From NCBI GenBank assembly GCA_022563395.1, contig JADFNM010000001.1, positions 398,342 through 462,341 of the forward strand: a stretch of DNA of 64,000 bases, given 5' to 3'. A program made the translations under genes and the position numbers. This DNA is from Patescibacteria group bacterium. GTDB taxonomy: Bacteria > Patescibacteriota > Minisyncoccia > Minisyncoccales > UBA10102. The stretch's first letter is position 1, and each line of letters starts with the position of its first letter. Under the pieces are notes generated by a model. The model did no database searches and was not told where the DNA came from. It saw nothing but the letters and a program-made list of their open reading frames with translations. Positions 8,831-60,260 of the stretch are shown in pieces.

Positions 8831-10114
8831 TTACCTTGAAATTACTTTAAGTGTTGCGCGACATTCCTCGGAGTATGAAGACGGCAGTTCTTCACAGAAT
8901 GTTCTTCTATATATAGGATCCTGAACATAATAAGAAACTGCTCTCATTAAATTTATAAAACAGGAACCTTGATAATAGGGATCATCAATGACATTACAAA
9001 ATGCAATTGCAATACTCCGGTCATTCTCACCTCCCCAATACAGCGAGTTTGTTGCATGCACCACGCAGGCCGCAGCGCCCTCTTTCGTATTCGCAAGCAG
9101 ACACCATTCATACACACGATTTAATGCTTCGTCTGTTATCTGTTCTATTGTAGATACTCTAATATCTCGCCCCAAAGCTAATCCTATAAACTCTTTCCCA
9201 AATCCACCGTAGCATGCATCCCGACTACGAAAATCGGCAACAGGAAGCTTATCGCAGTACAAAAATGCTTGTTTGAAGTCAGCAGGCGTCGGAAATCCCG
9301 CATCTGCTCCTGCAGCGTTAAAAAGATGAGGGGTCAAATATATATAACAAAGGGAGCGCGCCTCATCGGGCATGAAATCGCTTGAACAGGGATAGAGAGG
9401 ATTCTCCTCTTTAAAATATTTTTTATGCTGTTCCTCCCAAAGCTCCTTATCGTGAACTCCATTTATAATCTCCATAATACTCCCGCTGATACACTGATGC
9501 GCTTCCTGGTTTCCGTATTGTGGGGTACCGGTTTTCTCGCAAAGGTTGATTGCCTTCTCTAGATCATACCCAGTATAAGCTAATACTCCGTGGCCTAATC
9601 CATGGAAACACATGGTATAGGCACCGGAACCGCCCGGTGCGTTCCGACAAGCTTTTGCAATCTCATCAAGAGCAGCTTCTCCTTCTTCAAAAAATAGGCC
9701 TATGACAATGGAATGGGAGCAGGCATTACGAAAATCATGGGTGCATATGGGAATACCCCCCAACCCTTCTTGCTGATAGAGAACGCCGCCCACAACATGT
9801 GCAAGCAGATGCATATCAATGTTGGGGGGAATTGATGCAGCTCGCAACACATCAAAGGCATACCCTCCCCCTTTTTTCTTTGCAAGATCTTCAAAATACC
9901 TGCCTAACTCTTGAAATGAAGACAAGTTCTGAGTTTGGAGTTCTTGGATTTCAAGATACCTATTTTCTTTTTTACCCAAAAGCGGAGAAAAAATATTGAT
10001 GTCTCCTTTCACTAAAGGAAAATAAGCCAAGAAAACTCCCCCAAGGAAAACGAGGAGAAAGAGAATAAAAAGAAGAATATTTTTTGAAAACAGGGAGAAA
10101 ATAAAGGCAACCAT
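8831..10114 (-). CDS. membrane-anchored Cys/His-rich repeat protein, paralog 4 (no cupredoxin-like domain); function unknown
   Basis: 427 aa with an N-terminal TM. Motifs are LLAHVVGGVLYQ, CSHSIVIGLFFE, MCFHGLGHGVLAY and ACYGGFGKEFIG. Confidence 0.7.
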   Translation of the reverse strand: MVAFIFSLFSKNILLFILFLLVFLGGVFLAYFPLVKGDINIFSPLLGKKENRYLEIQELQTQNLSSFQELGRYFEDLAKKKGGGYAFDVLRAASIPPNIDMHLLAHVVGGVLYQQEGLGGIPICTHDFRNACSHSIVIGLFFEEGEAALDEIAKACRNAPGGSGAYTMCFHGLGHGVLAYTGYDLEKAINLCEKTGTPQYGNQEAHQCISGSIMEIINGVHDKELWEEQHKKYFKEENPLYPCSSDFMPDEARSLCYIYLTPHLFNAAGADAGFPTPADFKQAFLYCDKLPVADFRSRDACYGGFGKEFIGLALGRDIRVSTIEQITDEALNRVYEWCLLANTKEGAAACVVHATNSLYWGGENDRSIAIAFCNVIDDPYYQGSCFINLMRAVSYYVQDPIYRRTFCEELPSSYSEECRATLKVISR

Positions 10115-11831: not shown

Positions 11832-12344
11832 TTATTCACAAACAGCAAGGGTAACAGTTCCTGCGTCAGGTACGCTGTTTCCATCAGCATCTGCTACTTC
11901 CTTTTCAGTCACTCCTCCAGGACCCGTGGCTATAATGGCTACTTGTCCTGCGGTTGCGGCCCGCTCAAGAATGGCATAGGCGCAGTAGTCCTGGTCTGTA
12001 GCTGAGTTGTCAATCCAGGTGTAGGCAGGATTCCCAGAACCCGGATCTGTGGGAACTTTCAGGTACGTTCCAACTGCAGATGGAATGGGAGGAACCTGAG
12101 AAAGATACGCCTCGTTTGCGTTGCAGGTAGAATCGTCATAGCACAGTTCCATTGCGGTGTTAAACTGCCTCATGTCAGATTGTCTGCGTGCGTCTCTCGC
12201 ATTGGCCCGTGCTCCTCCAAGAGATACCAGCACAATACCTGCCAGAATCCCAATAATCGCGATGACCACCAAGAGTTCAATTAAAGTAAACCCGCCTAAG
12301 TTTTTCTTAGAAAAATTTTGGCGGATAAATCCTTTTTGTTTCAT
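11832..12344 (-). CDS. type IV pilin (long leader peptide)
   Basis: [18 protein letters not shown]|[19 protein letters not shown] shows the class III signal with G-1, F+1 and E+5. Confidence 0.85.
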
Positions 12345-12376
12345 TGTTGCGTTCTTGTTACTATAAAAACAGATAT

Positions 12377-12390
12377 CTCGACCTTTCTGT
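12377..12390 (-). promoter_or_regulatory. 14-nt motif ACAGAAAGGTCGAG, 32 nt upstream of the pilin ATG
   Basis: An identical 14-mer at the identical 32-nt distance precedes mini-pilin gene 33639-33995 (34028-34041). Confidence 0.4.
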
Positions 12391-12426
12391 CAAATCCGGT
12401 TCGGGTCGGACAGACACTCTACTAAT

Positions 12427-12484
12427 GTAAATCCTTTTTGTTTCACTGTTGTGTTCTTGTTCTTTAAATGCACAAGCATCAACC
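12427..12484 (-). pseudogene. orphan pilin 5' fragment (leader + first ~7 codons, ATG->GTG)
   Basis: gtaaatcctttttgtttcac tgttgtgttcttgttctttaaatgcacaagcatcaacc is nearly identical to 12961-13020, the start and leader of pilin 12486-12980. No downstream ORF follows. Confidence 0.6.
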
Positions 12485-12485
12485 C

Positions 12486-12980
12486 CTAGAGAGTACAATC
12501 ATTGGTAAACACTCCATTGGTCTCAATTGAATGTAACCCCTCTGCCAGGCTCCCGGCTCCACTCTCCAGCCAGAAACAAATCTGGTAGTCTCCCGTGGTT
12601 GCACCGAGACTTCCGTCAGCCTGACTAATAGAATACTGACAGGTGGCACTAGTACCATTGGCACAGGCTGTCCCTCCGGTTCCAACTGATGGGTCAGCAA
12701 AGTTCACAAATCCTACAATGCTATTATTGCTTGGGCATCCGCTGCACCCCGTACAGGTATTTACCTTGGCATCAGCCAAGACGCATCCTGTCAGTGCCTC
12801 TGGATTGTCTGAGGCCTCAACTTCCAAGGCAGTGGACATTTGCCGTACGTCCGTCACGCGTCTGGCGTCTCTTGCCTTGGCACGAGCAGGACCCAGGGAT
12901 ATAAGAACAATGGAAGCAAGCAAGCCAATAATCGCTATCACGATGAGCAGCTCAATTAAGGTAAATCCTTTTTGTTTCAT
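12486..12980 (-). CDS. type IV pilin, tandem paralog 1
   Basis: MKQKG|FTLIELLIVIAIIG. The start is placed at the internal Met (12980) of the 182-aa track ORF. The C-terminus reads TTGDYQICFWLESGAGSL..IETNGVFT. Confidence 0.85.
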   Translation of the reverse strand: MKQKGFTLIELLIVIAIIGLLASIVLISLGPARAKARDARRVTDVRQMSTALEVEASDNPEALTGCVLADAKVNTCTGCSGCPSNNSIVGFVNFADPSVGTGGTACANGTSATCQYSISQADGSLGATTGDYQICFWLESGAGSLAEGLHSIETNGVFTNDCTL

Positions 12981-13040
12981 TGTTGTGTTTTTGTTCTTTA
13001 AATGCACAAGCATCAACCTTTCAATCGTATTCAAAACAAC

Positions 13041-13526
13041 CTATTCTTCGCATGTGGTAAACACCCCATTGGTTTCAATGGCGTTTAAACCAGATGACAG
13101 GCTCCCGGCTCCACTCTCCAGCCAGAAACAAATCTGGTAGTCGCCCGTGGTTGCAACGGCACTTCCGTCATCCTGGCTAATGGAGTACTGGCAGGGGGCG
13201 GTGGACGGACTTACACTTTGCTGGCAGGCTGCTCCTGCGGTTCCTACTGTGGGGTCGGCAAAGTTCACAAACCCTGCTACTGCTCCGGGGCCCGTGCACA
13301 AATCCACCTTGTGGTCGGCCGAGGTACAGGTTTCTACGGCTTCTGGATTGTCTGAGGCCTCAACTTCCAAGGCAGTAGACATTTGCCGTACGTCCGTCAC
13401 GCGTCTGGCGTCTCTTGCCTTGGCACGGGCAGGACCCAGGGATATAAGAACAATGGAAGCAAGCAAGCCAATGACTGCGATAACAACTAACAGTTCAATT
13501 AATGTAAATCCTTTTTGCTTTTTCAT
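13041..13526 (-). CDS. type IV pilin, tandem paralog 2
   Basis: MKKQKG|[14 protein letters not shown]. The N-terminal ~60 aa and C-terminal ~35 aa are conserved with its neighbours, and the centre is variable. Confidence 0.9.
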   Translation of the reverse strand: MKKQKGFTLIELLVVIAVIGLLASIVLISLGPARAKARDARRVTDVRQMSTALEVEASDNPEAVETCTSADHKVDLCTGPGAVAGFVNFADPTVGTAGAACQQSVSPSTAPCQYSISQDDGSAVATTGDYQICFWLESGAGSLSSGLNAIETNGVFTTCEE

Positions 13527-13584
13527 ACAATCAATGTAAAAAATGATTTTGGCTTTTTTGCCGTTCTGTCAAATCCAAACTGGC

Positions 13585-14058
13585 CTACTGACACGTGGTA
13601 AACACCCCGTTGGTTTCAATGGCGTGCAATAGTGGGCCTCCCAAGCTCCCGGCTCCACTCTCCAGCCAGAAACAAATCTGGTAGTCGCCCGTGGTTGCAT
13701 CGGCCGTCCCGTCTGCCCTACTGATAGAATACTGGCAGGTACTGCCGGAAGCTGACGTACAGGGAGTTCCAGGCGCAGTAGATGAAGGGTCAAGAAAGTT
13801 GCCAAAACCAGCAACCGCACCAGGTCCTGTGCAATCACGCACATTATCATCCAACCCCAGACAACCTTCAATATCTTCCGGATTGTCTGAGGCCTCAACT
13901 TCCAAGGCAGTGGACATTTGCCGTACGTCAGCTACGCGCCTTGCGTCTCTTGCCTTGGCACGGGCAGGACCCAAAGCTACCAATACAATGGAAGCTAACA
14001 TCCCAATGACTGCGATAACAACTAGCAGTTCAATTAATGTAAATCCTTTTTGTTTCAT
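13585..14058 (-). CDS. type IV pilin, tandem paralog 3
   Basis: MKQKG|[14 protein letters not shown], with the same conserved ends as 12486-12980 and 13041-13526. Confidence 0.9.
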   Translation of the reverse strand: MKQKGFTLIELLVVIAVIGMLASIVLVALGPARAKARDARRVADVRQMSTALEVEASDNPEDIEGCLGLDDNVRDCTGPGAVAGFGNFLDPSSTAPGTPCTSASGSTCQYSISRADGTADATTGDYQICFWLESGAGSLGGPLLHAIETNGVFTTCQ

Positions 14059-14124
14059 AGAATATAAATAATATCGACTTTTTTACCGTTTCCTTAATGT
14101 TGAACAAAGTAAAACATCAAGGTT

Positions 14125-14144
14125 CTGAGGGGTTTACCCCTCAG
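14125..14144 (-). terminator. hairpin CTGAGGGG-TTTA-CCCCTCAG after pilin 14170-14661 (weak T tail)
   Basis: 8-bp GC-rich stem 25 nt past the stop. The minus-strand tail is AACCTTGATGTTTTAC. Confidence 0.4.
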
Positions 14145-14152
14145 GTTCTTAT

Positions 14153-14344
14153 TATACTTGACTCAAAGCTTACCAACAAGGGCATTGTCCACCGTTGGGG
14201 CTTCCTGGCAGTCCCGGGTTGTAATCCAGCTTGAGGGAACCTTTTTGTGAACCCGCAAACCAGTCCCCTTCTTCAAGCTGTATGTACACGCAATACAACT
14301 GGCTTGAACAATTGGTAGTCAATGTATTCACGTTGTCTATCCAG
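14153..14344. repeat. 192-bp segment identical to 53586-53777 (pilin 3' end + 17 nt downstream)
   Basis: Base-by-base comparison by eye found no mismatch. Identity stops abruptly at 14345/53778. Confidence 0.9.
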
Positions 14345-14661
14345 AGGTAGGTACTCCCTTGAGGGTCTTTTGGGGTTGGGTCTAAGTACTTGCCGTCATC
14401 TACACCATTGCAGGCTGGGGGATTGATGCAGGGAATCTTTGAAGGAAGAGAGGATCCTGCAATCTGGGAGTACAGCTCATCATCCGAATAATCCAGCTCC
14501 ATTGCAAGCGTTATCTGTCGAATGTCAGACTGGCGCCTAGCATCCCTGGCCTTTGCCCGTGCTCCCCCCAGGGACACTAAAATACTGGAAGACAAAATGC
14601 CAATGATAGCTATTACCACCAAGAGCTCAATTAAGGTGAATCCTTTCTGCTTTTGAGACAT
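14170..14661 (-). CDS. type IV pilin (candidate major pilin)
   Basis: MSQKQKG|[18 protein letters not shown]. It is the first pilin after pilC, is followed by a hairpin, and ends in Cys-rich ..GGQCPCW. Confidence 0.9.
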   Translation of the reverse strand: MSQKQKGFTLIELLVVIAIIGILSSSILVSLGGARAKARDARRQSDIRQITLAMELDYSDDELYSQIAGSSLPSKIPCINPPACNGVDDGKYLDPTPKDPQGSTYLWIDNVNTLTTNCSSQLYCVYIQLEEGDWFAGSQKGSLKLDYNPGLPGSPNGGQCPCW

Positions 14662-17130: not shown

Positions 17131-17508
17131 TTAACCATTTAACAATTCTTTTACCTCCTCTACTACCTGGGTGGGGGTAAAGTGAGCTTTAATCAGGTAG
17201 CGGTCAGCGCCAAGAGAAATTCCTTTTTCAATCTCTTCTTTTTGCCCAAGGTTAGAGAGTACTACAATCTTTGTGTTCCGCAAGTTTTCTTGTTTTTGAG
17301 CGGCTAGAAGCAATTCCCAGCCGTCCACATGAGGAAGCACAATGTCCATGACAATGACCGAAGGGCTCAGCTTAGAAAACAAGGAAAGCGCCCTTTCTCC
17401 AGAATCTGCCACCTGCACCTTAAATCCAGCTTCTGTAAACTTTGTGGTGTAAATATCAATCAGCAAGGGGTCGTCTTCAACGAGTAAGATAGTATCTTTG
17501 GGGGACAT
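17131..17508 (-). CDS. stand-alone response-regulator receiver (CheY/PilH-like)
   Basis: 125 aa with ILLVEDDPLL, VIVMDIVLPHVDG and VVLSNLG. No output domain, and no histidine kinase in the window. Confidence 0.85.
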   Translation of the reverse strand: MSPKDTILLVEDDPLLIDIYTTKFTEAGFKVQVADSGERALSLFSKLSPSVIVMDIVLPHVDGWELLLAAQKQENLRNTKIVVLSNLGQKEEIEKGISLGADRYLIKAHFTPTQVVEEVKELLNG

Positions 17509-17509
17509 A

Positions 17510-19240
17510 TCAGTCTTCGGTCACGCGAATAACCTCCTCTATTGTTGTTATACCATCAATTGCCTTTAACACGCCATCCTGACGAAGCGTGACCATGCCC
17601 TGGCGCACTGCTTCTTTTGCAATGTTTGCTTCAGACGGAGTTTGAAGAACAATGTCTGAAAGCTCGTCGGTCATTGTAAGCACCTCAAAGAGACCAATCC
17701 TACCACTGTATCCTGCGGCTCCACATTCTTTGCATCCTTTGGCAACAAACAAACTCAGGTCTTTTCCTTTGGTTGCCAGGTGCACGCTCACGGATTTTTC
17801 TTTGGCAGCAGGAATCTTTCTGAGTTCTTGCAAGATGAGCTCTTTCATTTCCGTTTTTGGCTTGATGCGTTCCTTGCAATTATCGCACAAGCGTCTCACC
17901 AAACGTTGGGAAAGGGCAATGTTAAGCGTGGTTGGAACCAGGTACTTGTCCACTCCCATGTCCAAGAGACGAGGGATGACGCCAGAAGCATTGTTCGTAT
18001 GCAAGGTGGAAAGCACAATGTGCCCTGTTAAAGCAGCGTGCACAACAAGGGAGGCCGTCTCTTCGTCTCTAACCTCACCTACCATGATAACGTCTGGGTC
18101 TTGGCGCAGAACCTGGCGTAACCCTTGGGCAAAATCGTATTGAATATCGGGCCTAACCTGGGACTGGTTCACGCCTTCCAAAAGATACTCCACGGGGTCT
18201 TCCAAACTCACAATGTTCAAGGATTCCTTGTTAATACTCTGGAGCATGGCATACAGGGTGGTGGTTTTTCCAGAGCCCGTGGGCCCAGTCACCAAAATCA
18301 ACCCAAAGGGGCGTTTCAAAGCCGCTTGTGCTTTCTCTAAACTGGAACCTCCCAAACCAAGCTCGCCAAAACCCTTTAACCCCACTTCAGGGTCTAAAAC
18401 ACGTATGGCAACCTTTTCTCCTAGGGCAGTGGGAAAAGTGGAAACACGAAAGTCTATAGAGCGCTCTCCAATGTTTGCAGAAAATCTCCCATCCTGTGGT
18501 ACTCGCTGCTCATCAATCTTTAAGTTGGAAAGAATCTTAATGTGCGACACCACGGCTTGGTGAACCCGTTTTGGCAAGAATAAAGAGGAGTACAGGTCCC
18601 CCAGCATGCGAAACCTTACTCTGAGTTTGTCTTTGGTGGGTTCAATGTGAATGTCAGAGGCCTTCCCTTCAACCGCGTTTCTCAAGATGACTGCCACCAT
18701 CTTGGTGACCGGGGCCTCCTCCACCAAACGAGCGAGTTTTTGAGCTTGGTCCTTGCCCTTTTCTTCCTTCATCTCTTCTTGGAGTTCTCCTAAGGCCTGG
18801 CTCATATCGTTCTTTTGGTTTTGATAATGGCGCATGACTGCAGCAAACTGAGAAACAGAGATGAGCTGTATCTGAAACGAAAACCCTCCCTGGCGAGACA
18901 GGAAGTTCAGCGCCTCCTTTGCTTTTACGTCCTCCGGGGCTACCATACCAACCTCAACCACTCCTGCCCGCTTAGACAAGGGAACCATGCGATAGTGAGA
19001 TGCCGCATCCTCGGGGATAAGCTCAAGAATCTTTAAGGGAATGTCTTTGGGCTCAACAGATCTCAAAGGAACCTGCAGTCCCTCTGATTTAACGCTAAAC
19101 AAGAGCTCTTCTTCCACAAGCTTCTTTTCCAAGAGTACTTCCTCAACCAACTTTTGGGACCGAGTTGCCTCCTCTTGGACTTGGGTTGCGGCCTCGCTTA
19201 AAAGAAGATTTCTCTGAACAAGGGTTTGAAGAATGTTCAT
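17510..19240 (-). CDS. pilB: type IV pilus assembly ATPase (GspE/PilB family)
   Basis: 576 aa with an N-terminal T2SSE_N-like domain, Walker A (GPTGSGKTTT) and the CxxC..CxxC tetracysteine motif (CDNCK..CKECG). Confidence 0.9.
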   Translation of the reverse strand: MNILQTLVQRNLLLSEAATQVQEEATRSQKLVEEVLLEKKLVEEELLFSVKSEGLQVPLRSVEPKDIPLKILELIPEDAASHYRMVPLSKRAGVVEVGMVAPEDVKAKEALNFLSRQGGFSFQIQLISVSQFAAVMRHYQNQKNDMSQALGELQEEMKEEKGKDQAQKLARLVEEAPVTKMVAVILRNAVEGKASDIHIEPTKDKLRVRFRMLGDLYSSLFLPKRVHQAVVSHIKILSNLKIDEQRVPQDGRFSANIGERSIDFRVSTFPTALGEKVAIRVLDPEVGLKGFGELGLGGSSLEKAQAALKRPFGLILVTGPTGSGKTTTLYAMLQSINKESLNIVSLEDPVEYLLEGVNQSQVRPDIQYDFAQGLRQVLRQDPDVIMVGEVRDEETASLVVHAALTGHIVLSTLHTNNASGVIPRLLDMGVDKYLVPTTLNIALSQRLVRRLCDNCKERIKPKTEMKELILQELRKIPAAKEKSVSVHLATKGKDLSLFVAKGCKECGAAGYSGRIGLFEVLTMTDELSDIVLQTPSEANIAKEAVRQGMVTLRQDGVLKAIDGITTIEEVIRVTED

Positions 19241-22597: not shown

Positions 22598-22665
22598 GGC
22601 GGAGGGGGTGAGATTCGCCATATCATTCGATATGGCGCCCTGTCGAATGACAGGGCGAACCTCAC
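22597..22665 (-). ncRNA. twin-hairpin element, copy 1 (candidate structured RNA; T-arm/acceptor-CCA-like flanks)
   Basis: The minus strand reads GTGAGGTTCGCC[CTGTC-ATTC-GACAG]GGCGCC[ATATC-GAAT-GATAT]GGCGAATCTCAC-CCCCTCCG-CCA. A second copy at 31969-32038 has compensatory stem changes. Confidence 0.4.
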
Positions 22666-22910
22666 TTTAATACGTCTCGATATTGCTGTCGAAATAATCT
22701 CTTTCCCTCGGTCGTCTTCAAGAATCGCTCTCTTCTCTGTGCATCGCTCTTCAGGAGGTATGCTTCATATCCTATCAGCTTAAGTGGTCGCAGTGATGTC
22801 GTTGCTCGCACATTTCCGATTTCGTGTTCCTTTGTTCGTCTACGCAAATCGTTCGTAGAACCAGTATAAATCCTCCTATTTCTGAGGCGAAGAAAATATA
22901 CATAGTACAT
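22662..22910 (-). CDS. small GIY-YIG nuclease family protein
   Basis: MYYVYFLRLRNRRIYTGSTNDLRRRTKEH.. carries GIY-YIG, Arg and Glu motifs. The start is trimmed to 22910 because the longer track ORF reads through tRNA-Ser. Confidence 0.8.
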   Translation of the reverse strand: MYYVYFLRLRNRRIYTGSTNDLRRRTKEHEIGNVRATTSLRPLKLIGYEAYLLKSDAQRRERFLKTTEGKRLFRQQYRDVLK

Positions 22911-25387: not shown

Positions 25388-25425
25388 CTTAAATTTCATT
25401 TAGGAGTTCCTAAATGGAATTTACG
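25388..25425. repeat. paired AT-type palindromes CTTAAATTTCATTTAGG-agtt-CCTAAATGGAATTTACG
   Basis: Same family as 30579-30617, 48523-48559 and others. Confidence 0.8.
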
Positions 25426-27136: not shown

Positions 27137-28249
27137 ATGACTATTCTCGGCATTGAAACCTCGTGCGACGACACAGGCATTGCAATAGTTGAAGGCAAGG
27201 GCCTGCCCGCGCAGGCAGGAAAAACCTGGCCCCGCTTTCGTATTCTTTCTAACGTTGTTGCCTCTCAAATAGAGGTACACAAAAAGTATGGAGGAGTGTA
27301 TCCCAACCTGGCAAAACGCGAGCATATCGTGAATCTTCCCGTTGTTCTCAAAGCAGCGTTGAGAAAAGCAAAGCTCCAAAAAAAGAATCTCAAGATTGAT
27401 GCTGTGGCTGTAACCTACGGCCCGGGCCTTTCTCCTTGCTTGTGGACTGGTATTAACTTTGCAAAAGAACTGGCTAAAAAATATAGCGTTCCTTTAATCC
27501 CCGTTGACCATATGGAAGGGCATCTCTTGGTTGGTCTATTCACCGGTTTGCCTAAACGAGATTTAGGCAAGATCTTTCCTGCTGTCGTTCTCTTGGTGTC
27601 GGGAGGACACACTCAGCTCTTGCTCATGAAAGGAATGGGGAAATATGAGCTGTTGGGAGAAACCAGGGATGATGCAGCAGGAGAGGCCTTTGACAAGACC
27701 GCAAGAATTCTCGGGCTTCCTTACCCCGGCGGACCCGCCGTCGCCGCTGCAGCGGCTCTGGCGGGCAAGCCCGCCATTGCAAAACTCGCAGCCATGCCTA
27801 AATCTCGTTTAGGCATTAACCTCCCAAGGCCAATGATATACACCAAGGATCTTGACTTTAGCTTTTCTGGCTTGAAAACCGCGGTACTATATGACTATCA
27901 GAAAAGAACAAAGAAAGTGCGGGAGTCCAAAGAATATGTACGCAAAATGGCACAAGAAATTCAGCAGGCAATCATTGATGTCTTGCTCAAAAAAACACTG
28001 AGGGCTGCAAAGCAATACAACGCAAAGAGTATTATCCTGGGGGGAGGAGTTTCTGCAAATGAAGAGTTACGAAAACAGCTTAAAGAAGCGGCAGGCAAAG
28101 AAAAGATAGCGCTCTTCCTTCCAAAGAAATCATTGGCAACGGACAATGGGGTGATGCCGGCTTTTGTGGGATACTTTCTCCTTGTCAAAAAGAGGTATAC
28201 AAAAGACCCCGAGTCTATTGCCGCAGACCCCAATCTGCGCTTACAATAG
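27137..28249 (+). CDS. tsaD: tRNA N6-adenosine threonylcarbamoyltransferase TsaD (Kae1/Qri7 family)
   Basis: ILGIETSCDDTGIAIV, HMEGHL, LLVSGGHTQL and DDAAGEAFDKTARILGLPYPGGP. The ATG at 27137 is preferred over the TTG at 27101. Confidence 0.9.
   Translation: MTILGIETSCDDTGIAIVEGKGLPAQAGKTWPRFRILSNVVASQIEVHKKYGGVYPNLAKREHIVNLPVVLKAALRKAKLQKKNLKIDAVAVTYGPGLSPCLWTGINFAKELAKKYSVPLIPVDHMEGHLLVGLFTGLPKRDLGKIFPAVVLLVSGGHTQLLLMKGMGKYELLGETRDDAAGEAFDKTARILGLPYPGGPAVAAAAALAGKPAIAKLAAMPKSRLGINLPRPMIYTKDLDFSFSGLKTAVLYDYQKRTKKVRESKEYVRKMAQEIQQAIIDVLLKKTLRAAKQYNAKSIILGGGVSANEELRKQLKEAAGKEKIALFLPKKSLATDNGVMPAFVGYFLLVKKRYTKDPESIAADPNLRLQ
27202..27219. repeat. GC palindrome CCTGCCCGCGCAGGCAGG inside tsaD (encodes LPAQAG)
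   Basis: One mismatch from the intergenic copies at 10728 and 11797. It lies in a segment absent from E. coli TsaD as I recall that sequence. Confidence 0.75.
27550..27568. repeat. AT palindrome GCCTAAACGAGATTTAGGC inside tsaD (encodes LPKRDLG)
   Basis: The core is identical to the intergenic copies at 30601-30617 and 11682-11699. Confidence 0.8.
27728..27814. repeat. train of four palindromes inside tsaD (GGCGGACCCGCC; GCCGCTGCAGCGGC; GGCGGGCAAGCCCGCC; GCCTAAATCTCGTTTAGGC)
   Basis: It encodes GGPAVAAAAALAGKPAIAKLAAMPKSRLG, a loop about 13 aa longer than in E. coli TsaD. Confidence 0.75.
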
Positions 28250-30580: not shown

Positions 30581-30617
30581 CTAAATCTCGTTTAGGAGCT
30601 CCTAAACGAGATTTAAG
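30579..30617. repeat. paired AT palindromes CTAAATCTCGTTTAGG-agct-CCTAAACGAGATTTAAG (itself a 37-bp palindrome)
   Basis: It begins at the valS stop codon. Confidence 0.85.
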
Positions 30618-41089: not shown

Positions 41090-41131
41090 CCTTAATCTCG
41101 TTAAGTTATCCACACCTAAATTTCATTTAGG
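41090..41131. repeat. AT-type palindromes CCTTAATCTCGTTAAG .. CCTAAATTTCATTTAGG
   Basis: Same family. A further imperfect copy, CCTTAATTTCATTAGG, lies at 41184-41199. Confidence 0.8.
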
Positions 41132-41219
41132 CACACAGCGATAGGTTTAATTGTATTGCCTAAGCTTAGCTTGGTTTTCCACTCCTTAATTTCATTAGGG
41201 ATATATGCGGAGCGAGAGC

Positions 41220-46297: not shown

Positions 46298-46306
46298 CGG
46301 ATATTC

Positions 46307-46323
46307 CCTTAATGAAATTAAGG
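46307..46323. repeat. AT palindrome CCTTAATGAAATTAAGG
   Basis: It lies between the ftsH stop and tRNA-Ile. Identical copies occur at 58651-58667. Confidence 0.85.
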
Positions 46324-47811: not shown

Positions 47812-48225
47812 ATGGGACAAAACGATCAAATCTTCTACGTCGGCTTGAAAGCTTTTATTGCCGATGGAGAAAAACTTCTCATCGTCCAGGACCAAGATGG
47901 ACAGTGGGAGTTGCCGGGTGGTAAAGTTCAGATTGAGGAAGATGTAGCAGCTGCATTAAGCCGAGAAGTAAGAGAGGAGATTGGAGAGAGTGCAGACATT
48001 GAAATCGGCTCTGCGTTTCATGCGTGGATACGACAACCACACCCGGACCTAAAGTTCCTTCTGTTTTTGGTAGGTTTCCGTTGTTTCTGGAAAAGAGGTG
48101 AAATCTCGATAAGCCCTGAACACAAGAACTTTCGCTGGATTACCAAAGAAGAAGTTGATAGCATAGGCTTTGAAAATACGTATAAAGATGCTATAAAGTA
48201 TTATTTCCAGAGCCTTGAAAAATAA
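47812..48225 (+). CDS. NUDIX hydrolase
   Basis: Nudix box GGKVQIEEDVAAALSREVREEIGE. The start is trimmed to ATG 47812 because the upstream part of the track ORF is two tRNAs. Confidence 0.85.
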   Translation: MGQNDQIFYVGLKAFIADGEKLLIVQDQDGQWELPGGKVQIEEDVAAALSREVREEIGESADIEIGSAFHAWIRQPHPDLKFLLFLVGFRCFWKRGEISISPEHKNFRWITKEEVDSIGFENTYKDAIKYYFQSLEK

Positions 48226-48229
48226 ATAT

Positions 48230-48301
48230 GCCGCGGTAGCTCAGTGGTAGAGCAGTGGCTTGAAGAGCCTCGTGTCGAGTGTTCAATTCACTCCCGCGGC
48301 A
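48230..48301 (+). tRNA. tRNA-Phe(GAA)
   Basis: Acceptor GCCGCGG/CCGCGGC, anticodon loop TTGAAGA (one T-T mismatch in the stem), T arm GAGTG-TTCAATT-CACTC. Confidence 0.85.
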
Positions 48302-48399
48302 CAAAGTCCAGCCTTCGCTGTCTTCTTTGCGGGTCTTGCCCGCGCGCCGTCGCCAAAGCTATGGCGGCGTGCGACCGAAGCCAGCTACGGCTGGCGAAG
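48302..48399 (+). repeat. GC-rich multi-hairpin spacer between tRNA-Phe and tRNA-Gly
   Basis: The closing stem GCCTTCGC (48311-18)/GCGAAGGC (48394-401) encloses hairpins GCGGG-tcttg-CCCGC, CGCCG..CGGCG and GCCAGC-tacg-GCTGGC. It is homologous to 57732-57790. Confidence 0.7.
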
Positions 48400-48474
48400 G
48401 CGGGCGTGGTATAGTGGCTATTATGAGTCGTTGCCAACGACTAGACGGCAGTTCGATTCTGCTCGCCCGCTCCA
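48400..48474 (+). tRNA. tRNA-Gly(GCC)
   Basis: Acceptor GCGGGCG/CGCCCGC, anticodon arm AGTCG-TTGCCAA-CGACT, CCA encoded. Confidence 0.9.
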
Positions 48475-48484
48475 AAAGCAAAAT

Positions 48485-48510
48485 CGCCCCAGAAGGGGCG
48501 GTTTTGTGTT
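48485..48510 (+). terminator. rho-independent terminator after the tRNA cluster
   Basis: CGCCCC-agaa-GGGGCG followed by GTTTTGTGTT. Confidence 0.7.
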
Positions 48511-48513
48511 CCT

Positions 48514-49080
48514 TCAATATCTCCTTAATGAGATTAAGGATTCCTTAATTTCATTAAGGAAAAATTGCTTTCTATGCAACACCGCAAGGGCAAGTTCGTA
48601 TGCTCCAACAAACACTCCGACAAAGAAGAGGTCTCCCAGTAGAGTATATTTCAAGAAGGGGAGACCCATTGTATAAGAAAGCATAAGACCTTCTAGGGTT
48701 GGGGCGTACAAAGGAGAAAAAGCCCACACGGCAAAGTTGGTGAAGAGATAAAAGAGAAACGATCCTGCCAGGGTTGCCAGTGTTATGGTTCCAAGGTTCT
48801 TTCTGCCTTTGATAAGCAGGCCAAAGATACCATAGAACAGAAAGCTTCCGTACACCACAAGCATTAACTTTACATCATAAAACCCAATGACAAGGTCAGC
48901 CAAAAACATCACGGCCAATGGGAGGACAAGGGCCCACCTGCTTTTTCTGGCAAGATATATGCCGGCAAACAAAGCCAAAGCACCTACCGGAGTAAAGTTT
49001 GGGGGGTGAGGAATCAGGCGCCCTGCCAAAGCAATTCCTAGGGCAGCCAACAAAAATCCAATAAGAAGATGCCGCTTCAT
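48514..49080 (-). CDS. polytopic membrane protein, DUF6580-like putative transporter (family assignment from memory)
   Basis: 188 aa with 5-6 TMs and N-terminal LIPHPPNFTPVGALALFAGIY. The last ~15 codons read through AT palindromes at 48523-48559. Confidence 0.55.
   Translation of the reverse strand: MKRHLLIGFLLAALGIALAGRLIPHPPNFTPVGALALFAGIYLARKSRWALVLPLAVMFLADLVIGFYDVKLMLVVYGSFLFYGIFGLLIKGRKNLGTITLATLAGSFLFYLFTNFAVWAFSPLYAPTLEGLMLSYTMGLPFLKYTLLGDLFFVGVFVGAYELALAVLHRKQFFLNEIKESLISLRRY
48523..48559. repeat. paired AT palindromes CCTTAATGAGATTAAGG-att-CCTTAATTTCATTAAGG
   Basis: They overlap the 3' coding end of ORF 48514-49080. Confidence 0.85.
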
Positions 49081-53367: not shown

Positions 53368-53585
53368 AGTTTCAACTGCTTGAAACTTCACGGATTTGCG
53401 CGCCCCGAGTCCCCGAGGGGCAATAATGCAAATCCTGGTCCTGCTTTGGAAAACTGCTGAAAGCAAATCGTTTTTCAAAGCAGGTACCAAAAAAAACAAA
53501 AAATAGCTCAGACATGAAGCTGTTTTTTGTTAGTGCCCAGGGTGTACTATTAGACCTCCGAAGTCTAACACTCCTACGCCTTATT

Positions 53586-53777
53586 TATACTTGACTCAAA
53601 GCTTACCAACAAGGGCATTGTCCACCGTTGGGGCTTCCTGGCAGTCCCGGGTTGTAATCCAGCTTGAGGGAACCTTTTTGTGAACCCGCAAACCAGTCCC
53701 CTTCTTCAAGCTGTATGTACACGCAATACAACTGGCTTGAACAATTGGTAGTCAATGTATTCACGTTGTCTATCCAG
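53586..53777. repeat. 192-bp segment identical to 14153-14344
   Basis: See 14153-14344. It covers the last 58 codons plus stop of ORF 53603-55081 and 17 nt downstream. Confidence 0.9.
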
Positions 53778-57720: not shown

Positions 57721-57731
57721 ATATTCTCGAC

Positions 57732-57790
57732 CCACCTTCGCGGTCTGGCGGACTTTGTCCGCCAAAGCTCGCTACGGCGGGCGAAGGCGG
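57732..57790. repeat. GC-rich hairpin element abutting the 3' end of tRNA-Ser(CGA)
   Basis: CCACCTTCGC..GGCGGAC-ttt-GTCCGCC-AAAGCT..CTACGGCGGGCGAAGGCGG. The words are shared with 48302-48401 and with the valS inserts. Confidence 0.7.
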
Positions 57791-57870
57791 AGGGTGCAGG
57801 ATTCGAACCTGCAAGGGATTGCTCCCAATGGTTTTCGGGACCATCGCAATAGCCGTTCTGCCAACCCTCC
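57788..57870 (-). tRNA. tRNA-Ser(CGA) (putative; C at position 33)
   Basis: Acceptor GGAGGGT/ACCCTCC, anticodon arm ATGGT-CCCGAAA-ACCAT, long variable arm, T-loop TTCGAAT. Confidence 0.75.
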
Positions 57871-58641: not shown

Positions 58642-58860
58642 CGCATATCGCCTTAATGAAATTAAGGATTCCTTAATTTCATTTAGGAACTATTCGAGTG
58701 TTTGAACTGGGGTCCCACTCCACAGCTTATTATAACCTTAGAGGACTGGAAATATATGTCTATTATGCGAGAAAAACTCCTGGAAATCAAAGCGTTGTGC
58801 CCAACCTAACTCCCCAGTCCAAAGCTTATTATACTTTTAGAAGATACAGAATATATGGCT
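58642..58860 (+). repeat. 219-bp direct repeat, left copy (AT palindromes + two promoter/RBS/micro-ORF units)
   Basis: It aligns without indels to 60042-60260 at a constant 1400-bp offset, and is roughly nine-tenths identical by eye. Confidence 0.9.
58756..58809 (+). CDS. micro-ORF L1, MSIMREKLLEIKALCPT
   Basis: Preceded by TATAAC..AGAGGA-N10-ATG. Compared with R1 there are 5 synonymous and 0 nonsynonymous differences across REKLLEIK. Confidence 0.45.
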   Translation: MSIMREKLLEIKALCPT

Positions 58861-60041: not shown

Positions 60042-60260
60042 CGCATATCGCCTAAATGAAATTAAGGAATCCTTAATTTCATTTAGGAACTATTCGAGTG
60101 TTTGAACTGGGGTCCCAGTCCAAAGCTTATTATAACTTTAGAGGACTGGAAATATATGGCTGGCATGAGAGAGAAACTCTTGGAGATTAAAGTGTTGTGC
60201 CCAAGATAGCTCCCCAGTCCAAGGCTTATTATACTTTTAGAGGATGCGGAGTATATGGCT
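60042..60260 (+). repeat. 219-bp direct repeat, right copy
   Basis: See 58642-58860. Confidence 0.9.
60156..60209 (+). CDS. micro-ORF R1, MAGMREKLLEIKVLCPR
   Basis: Same frame and length as L1. The stop is TAG versus TAA. Confidence 0.45.
   Translation: MAGMREKLLEIKVLCPR

Follow-up and report, generated by a model that had tools for sequence, protein, structure and literature searches.

The window analyzed here, by which we mean the whole stretch of 64,000 nucleotides (positions 398,342 to 462,341 of contig JADFNM010000001.1, assembly GCA_022563395.1), carries two copies of a GC-rich hairpin module, each of which abuts the end of a tRNA gene. The window is part of a cellular genome of the Candidate Phyla Radiation (CPR; Patescibacteria) of the Paceibacteria type and encodes FtsH, ribosomal protein L19, a short (509-aa) translation initiation factor IF-2, a class II ribonucleotide reductase (RNR), and, within its 64 kb, 16 tRNA genes. 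A phage origin was rejected on the basis of FtsH, L19, IF-2, and RNR and of a viral scan that gave 0 hits, and the best named relatives by IF-2 are Wildermuthbacteria and Nealsonbacteria (55 to 60% identity). Copy 1 fills the 97-nt spacer between tRNA-Phe and tRNA-Gly(GCC) (site 1), while copy 2 lies between tRNA-Ser(CGA) and a DUF4446 gene (site 2); neither is contiguous with an open reading frame (ORF) of the GIY-YIG type that accompanies other members of the family. The features of both sites are listed in Table 1.

Table 1. Features of the two element copies and of the adjoining tRNA genes (positions in the window)
Feature	Position	Strand	Remark
Copy 1, three-hairpin variant, 5' arm to 3' arm	48308..48404	+	Last 5 nt are tRNA-Gly bases
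Copy 1, 5' arm CCAGCCTTCGC	48308..48318	+	Paired with 3' arm CGAAGGCGGG (48395-48404)
Copy 1, hairpin A GCGGGU-CUU-GCCCGC	48329..48343	+	From the fold; counterparts in other family members vary by GC<->AU compensatory changes
Copy 1, extra hairpin GCGCCGUCGCC-AAAGCUAU-GGCGGCGUGC	48344..48372	+	Not in canonical copies
Copy 1, hairpin B CCAGC-UACG-GCUGG	48381..48394	+	From the fold and sequence shared with copy 2
Copy 1, 3' arm CGAAGGCGGG	48395..48404	+	48400-48404 are G1-G5 of tRNA-Gly
tRNA-Phe(GAA), left neighbor of copy 1	48230..48302	+	Conserved in relatives
tRNA-Gly(GCC), foreign allele	48400..48474	+	Arrived together with copy 1
Copy 2, 58-nt block	57728..57785	+	Missing from otherwise identical site in L162 (and L165, L163)
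Copy 2, 5' arm CCACCTTCGC	57732..57741	+	
Copy 2, hairpin A GGCGGAC-UUU-GUCCGCC	57747..57763	+	
Copy 2, hairpin B CUCGC-UACG-GCGGG	57768..57781	+	One U.G pair
Copy 2, 3' arm CGAAGGCGG	57782..57790	+	
tRNA-Ser(CGA), 3' end abutted by copy 2	57786..57870	-	

An initial annotation of this DNA had described copy 1 as an 8-bp closing stem around three hairpins, with its 3' strand running into the tRNA-Gly gene. We recovered this stem, formed by GCCTTCGC (48312-48319) and the complementary GCGAAGGC (48394-48401); it reaches 2 nt into tRNA-Gly, or up to 5 nt when the outer pairs are included, and all three enclosed hairpins are present. The predicted minimum free energy (MFE) of copy 1 is -56.6 kcal/mol (z = -3.6), a value that 0 of 200 shuffled sequences equaled. 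The cloverleaf-like outline noted for this fold is a multi-branch junction and nothing more, as no tRNA or other Rfam model matches it: neither copy reached the gathering threshold of any family in Rfam 15, only tRNAs did so in the window, and at E <= 10 the interval 48200-48500 returned chance-level matches only, as did the relatives. Copy 2 (57728-57790) also folds better than its shuffles. It has the same arms as copy 1 (57732-57790), and its 3' arm overlaps the 3' end of the oppositely oriented tRNA-Ser(CGA), both as first described; however, it contains two inner hairpins rather than only one. The word AAAGCT, cited as shared between the copies, is a coincidence, since it falls in the loop of the extra hairpin in copy 1 and across the junction and the start of hairpin B in copy 2. 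The two copies do have in common a 20-mer, GCTACGGCNGGCGAAGGCGG, which occurs exactly twice (0 expected from shuffles), and their B hairpins differ by pair-preserving changes (C-G to U.G and A-U to C-G). Both are oriented along the + strand, and only copy 1 is on the strand of its tRNA. With a covariance model of the family (R1), copy 1 scored 34.5 bits (E = 6e-6) and copy 2 73.4 bits (57726-57790; E = 3e-15). A third candidate at 27735-27801 on the - strand reached E = 0.02 with the covariance model and lies inside a 382-aa ORF; it was treated as a false positive. Neither copy contains a terminator-like site (there is no U-tract), and the canonical terminator follows tRNA-Gly at 48485-48500. 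The extra hairpin of copy 1 recurs in another locus (L092; loci are designated by L numbers throughout), where it is found in the first unit of a tandem pair.

Orthologous loci were fetched through IF-2 homologues with 99, 86, 84, 82, 79, and 77% identity to that of the window, five of which had the window's gene order. At site 2, the spacer between tRNA-Ser(CGA) and the DUF4446 gene measures 66 nt in the window and in its 99% strain (L167) and 9 nt in L162, L163, and L165 (...CCG CCA AAACAT ATG and similar). The tRNA-Ser allele of L162 is 98.8% identical to that of the window, so what distinguishes the two at site 2 is a clean indel of 58 nt (57728-57785), located on the tRNA strand between C75 and A76 of the encoded CCA (alignment A4), with a 2-nt CC ambiguity in its placement. 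No target duplication was found at this site, which reads CCGCC-(58 nt)-AGAATAT in the window and CCGCCAGAACAT in L162 and L165; the GGCGG at 57786-57790, which is the complement of C71-C72-G73-C74-C75 of tRNA-Ser, is already present in the empty sites. In L164 (86%), only the distal 19 nt of the element are left (AGGCCGCGAAGGCGGGTTG), and the missing part ends at a CCGCC microhomology. Site 1 is likewise polymorphic, with a Phe-to-Gly spacer of 6 nt in L165 and 16 nt in L163 compared to 97 nt in the window.

Other relatives carry unrelated inserts in the same places. In L161, the site 1 spacer is 110 nt long, and an unrelated AT-rich two-hairpin element (GGAACGT..ACGTTCC plus AACGTAAAATTT..AAATTTTACGTT; junction TTACGTT/GCGG) occupies both tRNA boundaries (9411-9499 and 17468-17577), that is, site 2 as well; it is also found in L095 upstream of the tRNA-Gly(GCC) at 12714. 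A third type of insert, 153 nt long, lies in the Phe-to-Gly spacer of L162 (21155-21307), where a 12-bp closing stem (AAATTTCCCCCG/CGGGGGAAATTT) surrounds inner hairpins. Thus, the GC-rich hairpin module is an insertion relative to close relatives and decays by deletion, and the filled and empty sites, the L164 remnant, and the unrelated inserts together identify these tRNA boundaries as hot spots for several unrelated hairpin elements. We also observed that in one Andersenbacteria relative, the tRNA-Arg(GCG)/tRNA-Ser(GGA) pair, including some 13 nt of its trailer, lies in inverted orientation with respect to ddl (L169 2765-2935, compared with L170 2810-2979 and L003 1458-1632).

Further copies were sought in public genomes and metagenomes. 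A search pattern was derived from the shared 3' half of the two copies; it specified 20 bases, for which we estimated about one chance match in 596 Gb. Among GTDB species representatives it matched 40 loci, about 20 of which contain the same approximately 60-nt CPR-type element. These copies are found in Saccharibacteria, Andersenbacteria, Paceibacterota, Wolfebacteria, Sungiibacteriota, Magasanikiibacteriota, and unclassified Patescibacteria, so that the family is present, with a patchy distribution, in at least seven CPR lineages. A looser pattern applied to metagenomes gave dozens more copies among the matches listed, after removal of matches to AAGCACATTACGACCGGCGAAGGCGG, a conserved coding motif (K-H-I-T-T-G-E-G-G) that presumably belongs to an aminotransferase. 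A viral scan with the element pattern gave no match. In total, we compiled 47 distinct copies among the matches listed. A literature search covering miniature inverted-repeat transposable elements (MITEs) in CPR, tRNA-linked palindromes, and GIY-YIG genes returned no description of such a family in CPR, and the GC-rich hairpin elements therefore apparently constitute an undescribed family in this group.

The family is closely tied to tRNA ends. Thirty-three of the 47 copies lie within -3 to +1 nt of a tRNA end predicted by ARAGORN, compared to approximately 0.05 expected from the density of tRNA ends; the genes concerned encode tRNA-Gly (16), tRNA-Ser (12), tRNA-Pro (4), and tRNA-Asp (1), and some six further copies adjoin masked, split, or degenerate tRNA sequence. 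The junction is constant, reading GCGAAGG/CGG, with the CGG supplied by the tRNA gene. In the same-strand context, the element is upstream of the 5' end of tRNA-Gly (TCC, GCC, CCC) or tRNA-Pro (CGG, GGG); in the opposite-strand context, CGG corresponds, on the other strand, to C71-C72-G73 of tRNA-Ser (all four anticodons) or tRNA-Asp. Read on the other strand, the element always follows CCG(CC), provided either by the Ser/Asp acceptor end, discriminator, and CC or by the complement of the Gly/Pro 5' end. The family thus occupies four tRNA identities with at least 10 anticodons, in two orientations. Seven copies were recovered by searches that did not impose this junction (both window copies, L062-2, L082-2, L083-1, the Pro copy of L026, and L133-2), and all of them still read GCGAAGG/CGG.

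The 23-nt core of the element (CCTTCGCG-AAGCCCGCTACGGCGGGCGAAGG) is also present within an approximately 90-nt inverted-repeat element (GAGCATGATC...GATCATGCTC) of several alphaproteobacterial metagenome-assembled genomes (MAGs) (L007, L010, L013, L027, L031, and L040) and within arrays resembling repetitive extragenic palindromes (REPs; GCGTAG...CTACGC) in two "Zipacnadia" MAGs (L012, L014, L017, L019, L020, L032, L033, and L038). In L109 (about 692-760, - strand), a core-like motif, AAGCAAGCTACGGCCCGCGAAGGCGG, stands directly 5' of sequence with an RNase P RNA signature (GAGGAAAGTCCGG). In L035 (130-292), a 38-nt hairpin is apparently inserted in the D-loop region of tRNA-Pro(CGG).

The CPR element measures about 60 to 100 nt and folds into a 3- or 4-way junction. 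It consists of a left end, (A)AATC-CNNCCTTCGC, a variable U/C-rich joiner, hairpin A, CGAAG, hairpin B, and CGAAGG, followed by the flanking CGG. The loop of hairpin B is usually UACG, and UNCG-type loops (UACG, UUCG) are frequent. To describe pairing, we used an alignment (A2) of 32 distinct canonical copies with a model in which the closing stem has 9 bp, hairpin A 6 bp, and hairpin B 5 bp. In this alignment, 93.9% of the paired cells were complementary, compared to 38 to 50% when partners were slid, and changes on both sides of a pair affected 30 cells, compared to 9.6 in shuffles (0 of 500 shuffles reached the observed value). Double changes exchange G-C for A-U in hairpin A (13 sequences) and C-G, U-A, and G-C, or C-G and A-U, in hairpin B, whose stem variants include CC/GG, CA/UG, UC/GA, GC/GC, and GG/CC. 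Copies found with the covariance model even had quite different yet complementary B hairpins (GUCCCGCC-AAG-GCGGGAC and GGUUCGC-UUCG-GCGAACC).

The ends form a terminal inverted repeat (CNNCCTTCGC/GCGAAGGNGG) of 9 to 10 bp with 91% of cells paired, a closing-stem statistic that, like the one-sided variation of this stem and the invariance of the 3' arm and the UACG loop, partly reflects ascertainment, since the search patterns fixed both the 3' arm and the loop. Adding the tRNA-Gly bases GGGATTT lengthens the repeat to 15 bp. The canonical left end, AAATCCCGCCTTCGC, and GCGAAG+GCGGGATTT are exact reverse complements, showing that the inverted repeat extends into the 5' end of tRNA-Gly. At all sites, the left arm is complementary to the GGCGG flank, which is compatible with a recognition of the flank by pairing. 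Comparing the MFE of the two strands copy by copy was uninformative, as many alternative GC pairings exist.

At site 1, the tRNA gene differs along with the element. The flanks (the end of a NUDIX gene, tRNA-Phe, the terminator, and the end of a DUF6580 gene) are orthologous, but the tRNA-Gly(GCC) of the window is only 65 to 66% identical to the versions in L163 and L165 (98.6% identity between these two) and 93% identical to the tRNA-Gly of a distant element-bearing locus (L064). A foreign tRNA-Gly between orthologous flanks indicates that element and tRNA-Gly came in as one block. For tRNA-Ser(CGA), two alleles of approximately 62% identity are distributed incongruently with IF-2 identity. 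The presence of such deeply different tRNA-Gly(GCC) (65%) and tRNA-Ser(CGA) (62%) alleles at the same loci (L161 to L167) points to frequent xenologous replacement of tRNA genes. Moreover, element subtype follows tRNA context: hairpin A is of the A-U type in all 9 copies on the Ser/Asp side and of the G-C type in 14 of the 17 on the Gly/Pro side (p = 3e-6). This pattern speaks for a long association with particular tRNA genes and for a spread by recombination, to which rarer de novo insertions were added.

These exchanges raise the possibility that the element is not itself mobile but an old appendage of certain tRNA lineages, carried along whenever CPR genomes swap tRNA genes and flanks with DNA from relatives, which such a scheme supposes to happen often, with the tRNA as the homology anchor. 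The joint replacement of element and entire tRNA-Gly at site 1, the incongruent tRNA-Ser alleles, the correlation of subtype with context, and the end of the L164 remnant at a microhomology would all follow from such a history. Against it, the same tRNA-Ser allele is found with the element in the window and without it in L162, a clean indel independent of tRNA replacement; four tRNA identities with at least 10 anticodons in two orientations require de novo insertions at nonhomologous sites; and compensatory change would not have preserved both hairpins of a mere passenger in different CPR classes. We consider passive carriage unlikely.

A role of the element in the host was also considered. 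Promoter-like sites precede tRNA-Phe and tRNA-Arg in the window, from which copy 1 is predicted to be transcribed in sense and copy 2 as its complement. The element might accordingly be a cis-acting RNA, a 5' leader of tRNA-Gly/Pro or a 3' trailer of tRNA-Ser/Asp, that tunes processing by RNase P or RNase Z, protects the transcript, or masks the Shine-Dalgarno-like GAAGG(A/U/C)GG of a GIY-YIG or DUF4446 gene. Its position within transcription units, -10-like boxes 10 to 40 nt upstream of many Gly copies, covarying hairpins with frequent UNCG-type loops, and the far arm, which on the tRNA strand reads GCGAAGGAGG 10 nt before the GIY-YIG start of L003, are in line with this proposal. The initial annotation had likewise suggested that sequestration of a tRNA terminus modulates RNase P or RNase Z processing. 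However, when whole Phe-spacer-Gly and Ser-trailer precursors were folded, all acceptor stems formed, the tRNA cloverleaves won, and the element was a self-contained domain, which lends no support to a modulation of tRNA processing. In close relatives whose flanking genes are the same, the spacers measure 6 to 16 nt (site 1) or 9 nt (site 2), and the element is hence dispensable; unrelated AT-rich elements substitute for it at the same sites. The masking of a Shine-Dalgarno sequence by the far arm (GAAGG(N)GG) was rejected, as the distance to downstream starts is too irregular (6 to 21 nt or more).

Finally, the DNA orientation of the element toward the tRNA end is constant whether or not it is on the tRNA's strand. 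The transcribed strand differs by context, yet wobble pairs favor the same DNA strand (G.T to A.C, 17:6 on the Gly/Pro side and 6:2 on the Ser/Asp side, about 3:1), a signal that is weak and confounded by C->T bias. Taken together, we consider a host-functional RNA quite improbable, and the existence of close relatives without the element argues for an inserted, probably selfish element rather than a required tRNA-processing signal.

A small GIY-YIG gene stands just beyond the element in about half of the Ser/Asp-side copies. The ORF (77 to 81 aa, MW/YYVYIL...YIGCT...) starts 10 to 17 nt beyond the element on the tRNA's strand in at least seven distinct loci (L003, L046, L055, L089, L110, L154, and L082) and consists of a GIY-YIG catalytic domain (Pfam PF01541, E = 4e-11) of the UPF0213 type (PDB 1zg2, E = 7e-8). 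A conserved motif upstream of Ser-side copies, AATGTAAACATAMCACAT, was rejected as a promoter, since on the opposite strand it encodes the start of the GIY-YIG protein (MW/YYVYIL). In L003, element and GIY-YIG gene separate tRNA-Ser(GGA) from ddl, a spacer that in L170 measures 21 nt and contains neither of the two, and L046 and L055 encode 94% identical GIY-YIG proteins next to the same element subtype at different tRNA-Ser isoacceptors.

From these loci one might propose that the element forms the structured 5' untranslated region, or marks the boundary, of a free-standing GIY-YIG endonuclease gene homing to the 3' ends of tRNA-Ser/Asp, solo copies such as both window copies being leftovers after loss of the ORF. 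The proximity of the ORFs, the joint insertion in L003, and the same module at two different tRNA-Ser genes fit such a cassette. Yet GIY-YIG genes also occur directly after tRNA-Ser without the element, both in L154 (second copy) and in the window, where an 82-aa UPF0213-type ORF (22662-22910, - strand) starts 3 nt after tRNA-Ser(TGA); none of the 20 Gly/Pro-side copies has a GIY-YIG neighbor; and copy 2 of the window is a 58-nt indel with no ORF remnant. We regard this proposal as very doubtful, and the data are suggestive of an association between element and GIY-YIG gene that is not obligatory. Two arrangements were observed in addition. In the window, the GIY-YIG ORF is followed by two short hairpins and an approximately 24-nt remnant of a tRNA-Ser 3' end (22598-22621), and the whole segment (22598-22910, - strand) has the appearance of a small cassette that entered a tRNA-Ser gene or the site next to it. 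In L066 (7532-8000), the element is followed by the 5' half of a tRNA-Gly, a 95-aa GIY-YIG ORF, and then an intact tRNA-Gly.

On balance, and with moderate confidence, we favor the view that both window copies are small, GC-rich, multi-hairpin palindromic insertion elements of one CPR family, selfish in nature and lodged at tRNA termini, and the best reading of the family as a whole is that it is mobile or spread by recombination. The initial annotation had offered a mobile palindromic element targeting tRNA ends as its second option, and this option is strengthened by the polymorphism of both sites, the decayed remnant, the 33 of 47 copies at tRNA ends, and the patchy occurrence in CPR. As a mechanism, we propose that the hairpins of this selfish DNA would be recognized as folded single-stranded or cruciform DNA, that the element would be placed next to CCG(CC) at tRNA-gene ends without target duplication, and that recombination with conserved tRNA genes as anchors may then be the main route of its spread, both inside a CPR lineage and from one lineage to another. 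The UPF0213 GIY-YIG nuclease, which belongs to a structure-specific type, would be the best candidate for a putative trans-acting enzyme, and any effects on tRNA maturation or on the downstream gene would be secondary. In a more far-reaching version, to which we give little credence, element and nuclease would form an unrecognized CPR mobile system. The nuclease, lacking a DNA-binding domain, would act structure-specifically on the extruded multi-hairpin DNA, and the left arm (CCNCC) would select the point of insertion by pairing with the GGCGG/CCGCC terminus that acceptor end and CCA give to tRNA genes; elements and occasionally whole tRNA genes would thereby pass from one genome to another.

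Several observations weigh against the selfish, mobile element that we prefer. No transposase or other mobilizing enzyme was identified in the sampled loci, and a crude regular-expression scan for the IS200-type TnpA (HUH/Y) motif found none in 1.17 Mb of loci. The GIY-YIG gene of the window (22662-22910) is beside neither copy. Ordinary recombination could account for site 1, where a complete foreign tRNA-Gly accompanied the element. Subtypes group according to tRNA context rather than genome, each window copy being closer to same-context copies elsewhere than to the other window copy, and long co-inheritance with particular tRNA genes fits the subtypes better than recent bursts of transposition. 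A host function could also underlie the strong conservation that both sequence and structure show in different CPR classes, and the ascertainment of the 3' arm and loop described above tempers the case for the closing stem.

CPR genomes are considered to be streamlined and to contain little mobile DNA. A hairpin family that recurs across CPR classes with single-nucleotide precision at tRNA termini indicates that these genomes do carry small, probably selfish repeats. The data further identify tRNA loci as hot spots at which elements insert and decay and tRNA genes undergo xenologous replacement. The fixed junction (CCG/CC, at the encoded CCA) and the recurrent small GIY-YIG neighbor provide a testable lead to the insertion mechanism; should the link between nuclease and hairpins prove mechanistic, the interest would be high. 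In practice, such elements can mislead the annotation of tRNA boundaries or pass for regulatory RNAs.

The window holds other repeats as well. An AT-rich palindrome, CCTTAAT-NNN-ATTAAGG (variant CTAAATCTCGTTTAGG), occurs at least eight times (46306-46322, 48521-48561, 58649-58690, 60049-60091, 41115-41207, 25389-25408, 27798-27817, and 30581-30600), once directly before tRNA-Ile(TAT) and once after the tRNA-Gly terminator. Its role may be that of an operator or a processing hairpin, or it may represent a second repeat family in this genome. A 193-nt duplicate with 100% identity (14152-14344 and 53585-53777), followed by 207 nt at 84%, is separated by 39 kb, and tandem repeats of approximately 540 nt, apparently coding, span 12190-14652.

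Among known systems, the CPR element can be compared with REPs and bacterial interspersed mosaic elements (REP/BIME), which are mobilized by RAYTs (REP-associated tyrosine transposases, of the HUH type). These too are short, GC-rich, noncoding extragenic imperfect palindromes with compensatory changes and G.T pairs tolerated on one strand, and they are thought to act as folded single-stranded DNA. However, each is a single imperfect palindrome of 20 to 40 nt, whereas the CPR element comprises 60 to 100 nt, is multi-branched, and has a closing stem. It also lacks GTAG/CTAC at the foot of the palindrome, its CTAC lying within the hairpin B loop (GC-UACG-GC). REPs number tens to hundreds of copies per genome and flank a RAYT gene; the 64 kb of the window contain 2 copies, both at tRNA ends, the few copies of the family are almost all exactly at tRNA gene ends, and no RAYT gene was seen in the sampled loci.

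Palindrome-associated transposable elements (PATEs) derived from IS200/IS605 and Nezha-type MITEs likewise have hairpins near both ends, and the CPR element follows the rule of this group, with insertion 3' of a fixed word, CCG(CC), in one orientation and without target duplication. The "guide" pairing of IS608 resembles the complementarity of the left arm to the flank. Unlike IS200/IS605-type elements, the CPR element has a terminal inverted repeat of 9 to 15 bp; a restriction to tRNA ends is, to our knowledge, not known for the PATE/MITE family, neither TnpA nor TnpB turned up nearby in the crude scan, and no autonomous insertion sequence with the element's ends was seen in the sampled loci. 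Classical MITEs share with it the terminal inverted repeats but not the absence of target-site duplication.

The GC clusters, double-hairpin elements, and repetitive hairpin-forming elements of yeast, chytrid, and sponge mitochondria (PMC4478555, PMC2800124) are also GC-rich hairpin modules in a compact, more AT-rich genome, with presence/absence polymorphism, several unrelated families in the same intergenic spots, and a mobilizing mechanism that is not established. The CPR element differs in that it is bacterial, abuts tRNA termini precisely, has a fixed junction, and bears no sequence similarity to them. In phage T4, segB is a free-standing GIY-YIG homing endonuclease gene in the tRNA cluster, and, as in CPR, a GIY-YIG gene thus lies between or beside tRNA genes; in T4, its flanking DNA is co-converted (PMC2330249). 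The CPR proteins, however, are UPF0213-type catalytic domains of 77 to 95 aa without a DNA-binding domain, and the hairpin element has no T4 counterpart. Lastly, although the CPR element has no R/L box consensus, integrase, or cassette array, it recalls the attC sites of integrons, which are imperfect palindromes of 57 to 141 nt with a conserved fold and a variable center, are recognized as folded single strands, and travel with a short cassette, a part played in CPR sometimes by a tRNA gene; this resemblance is one of logic only.

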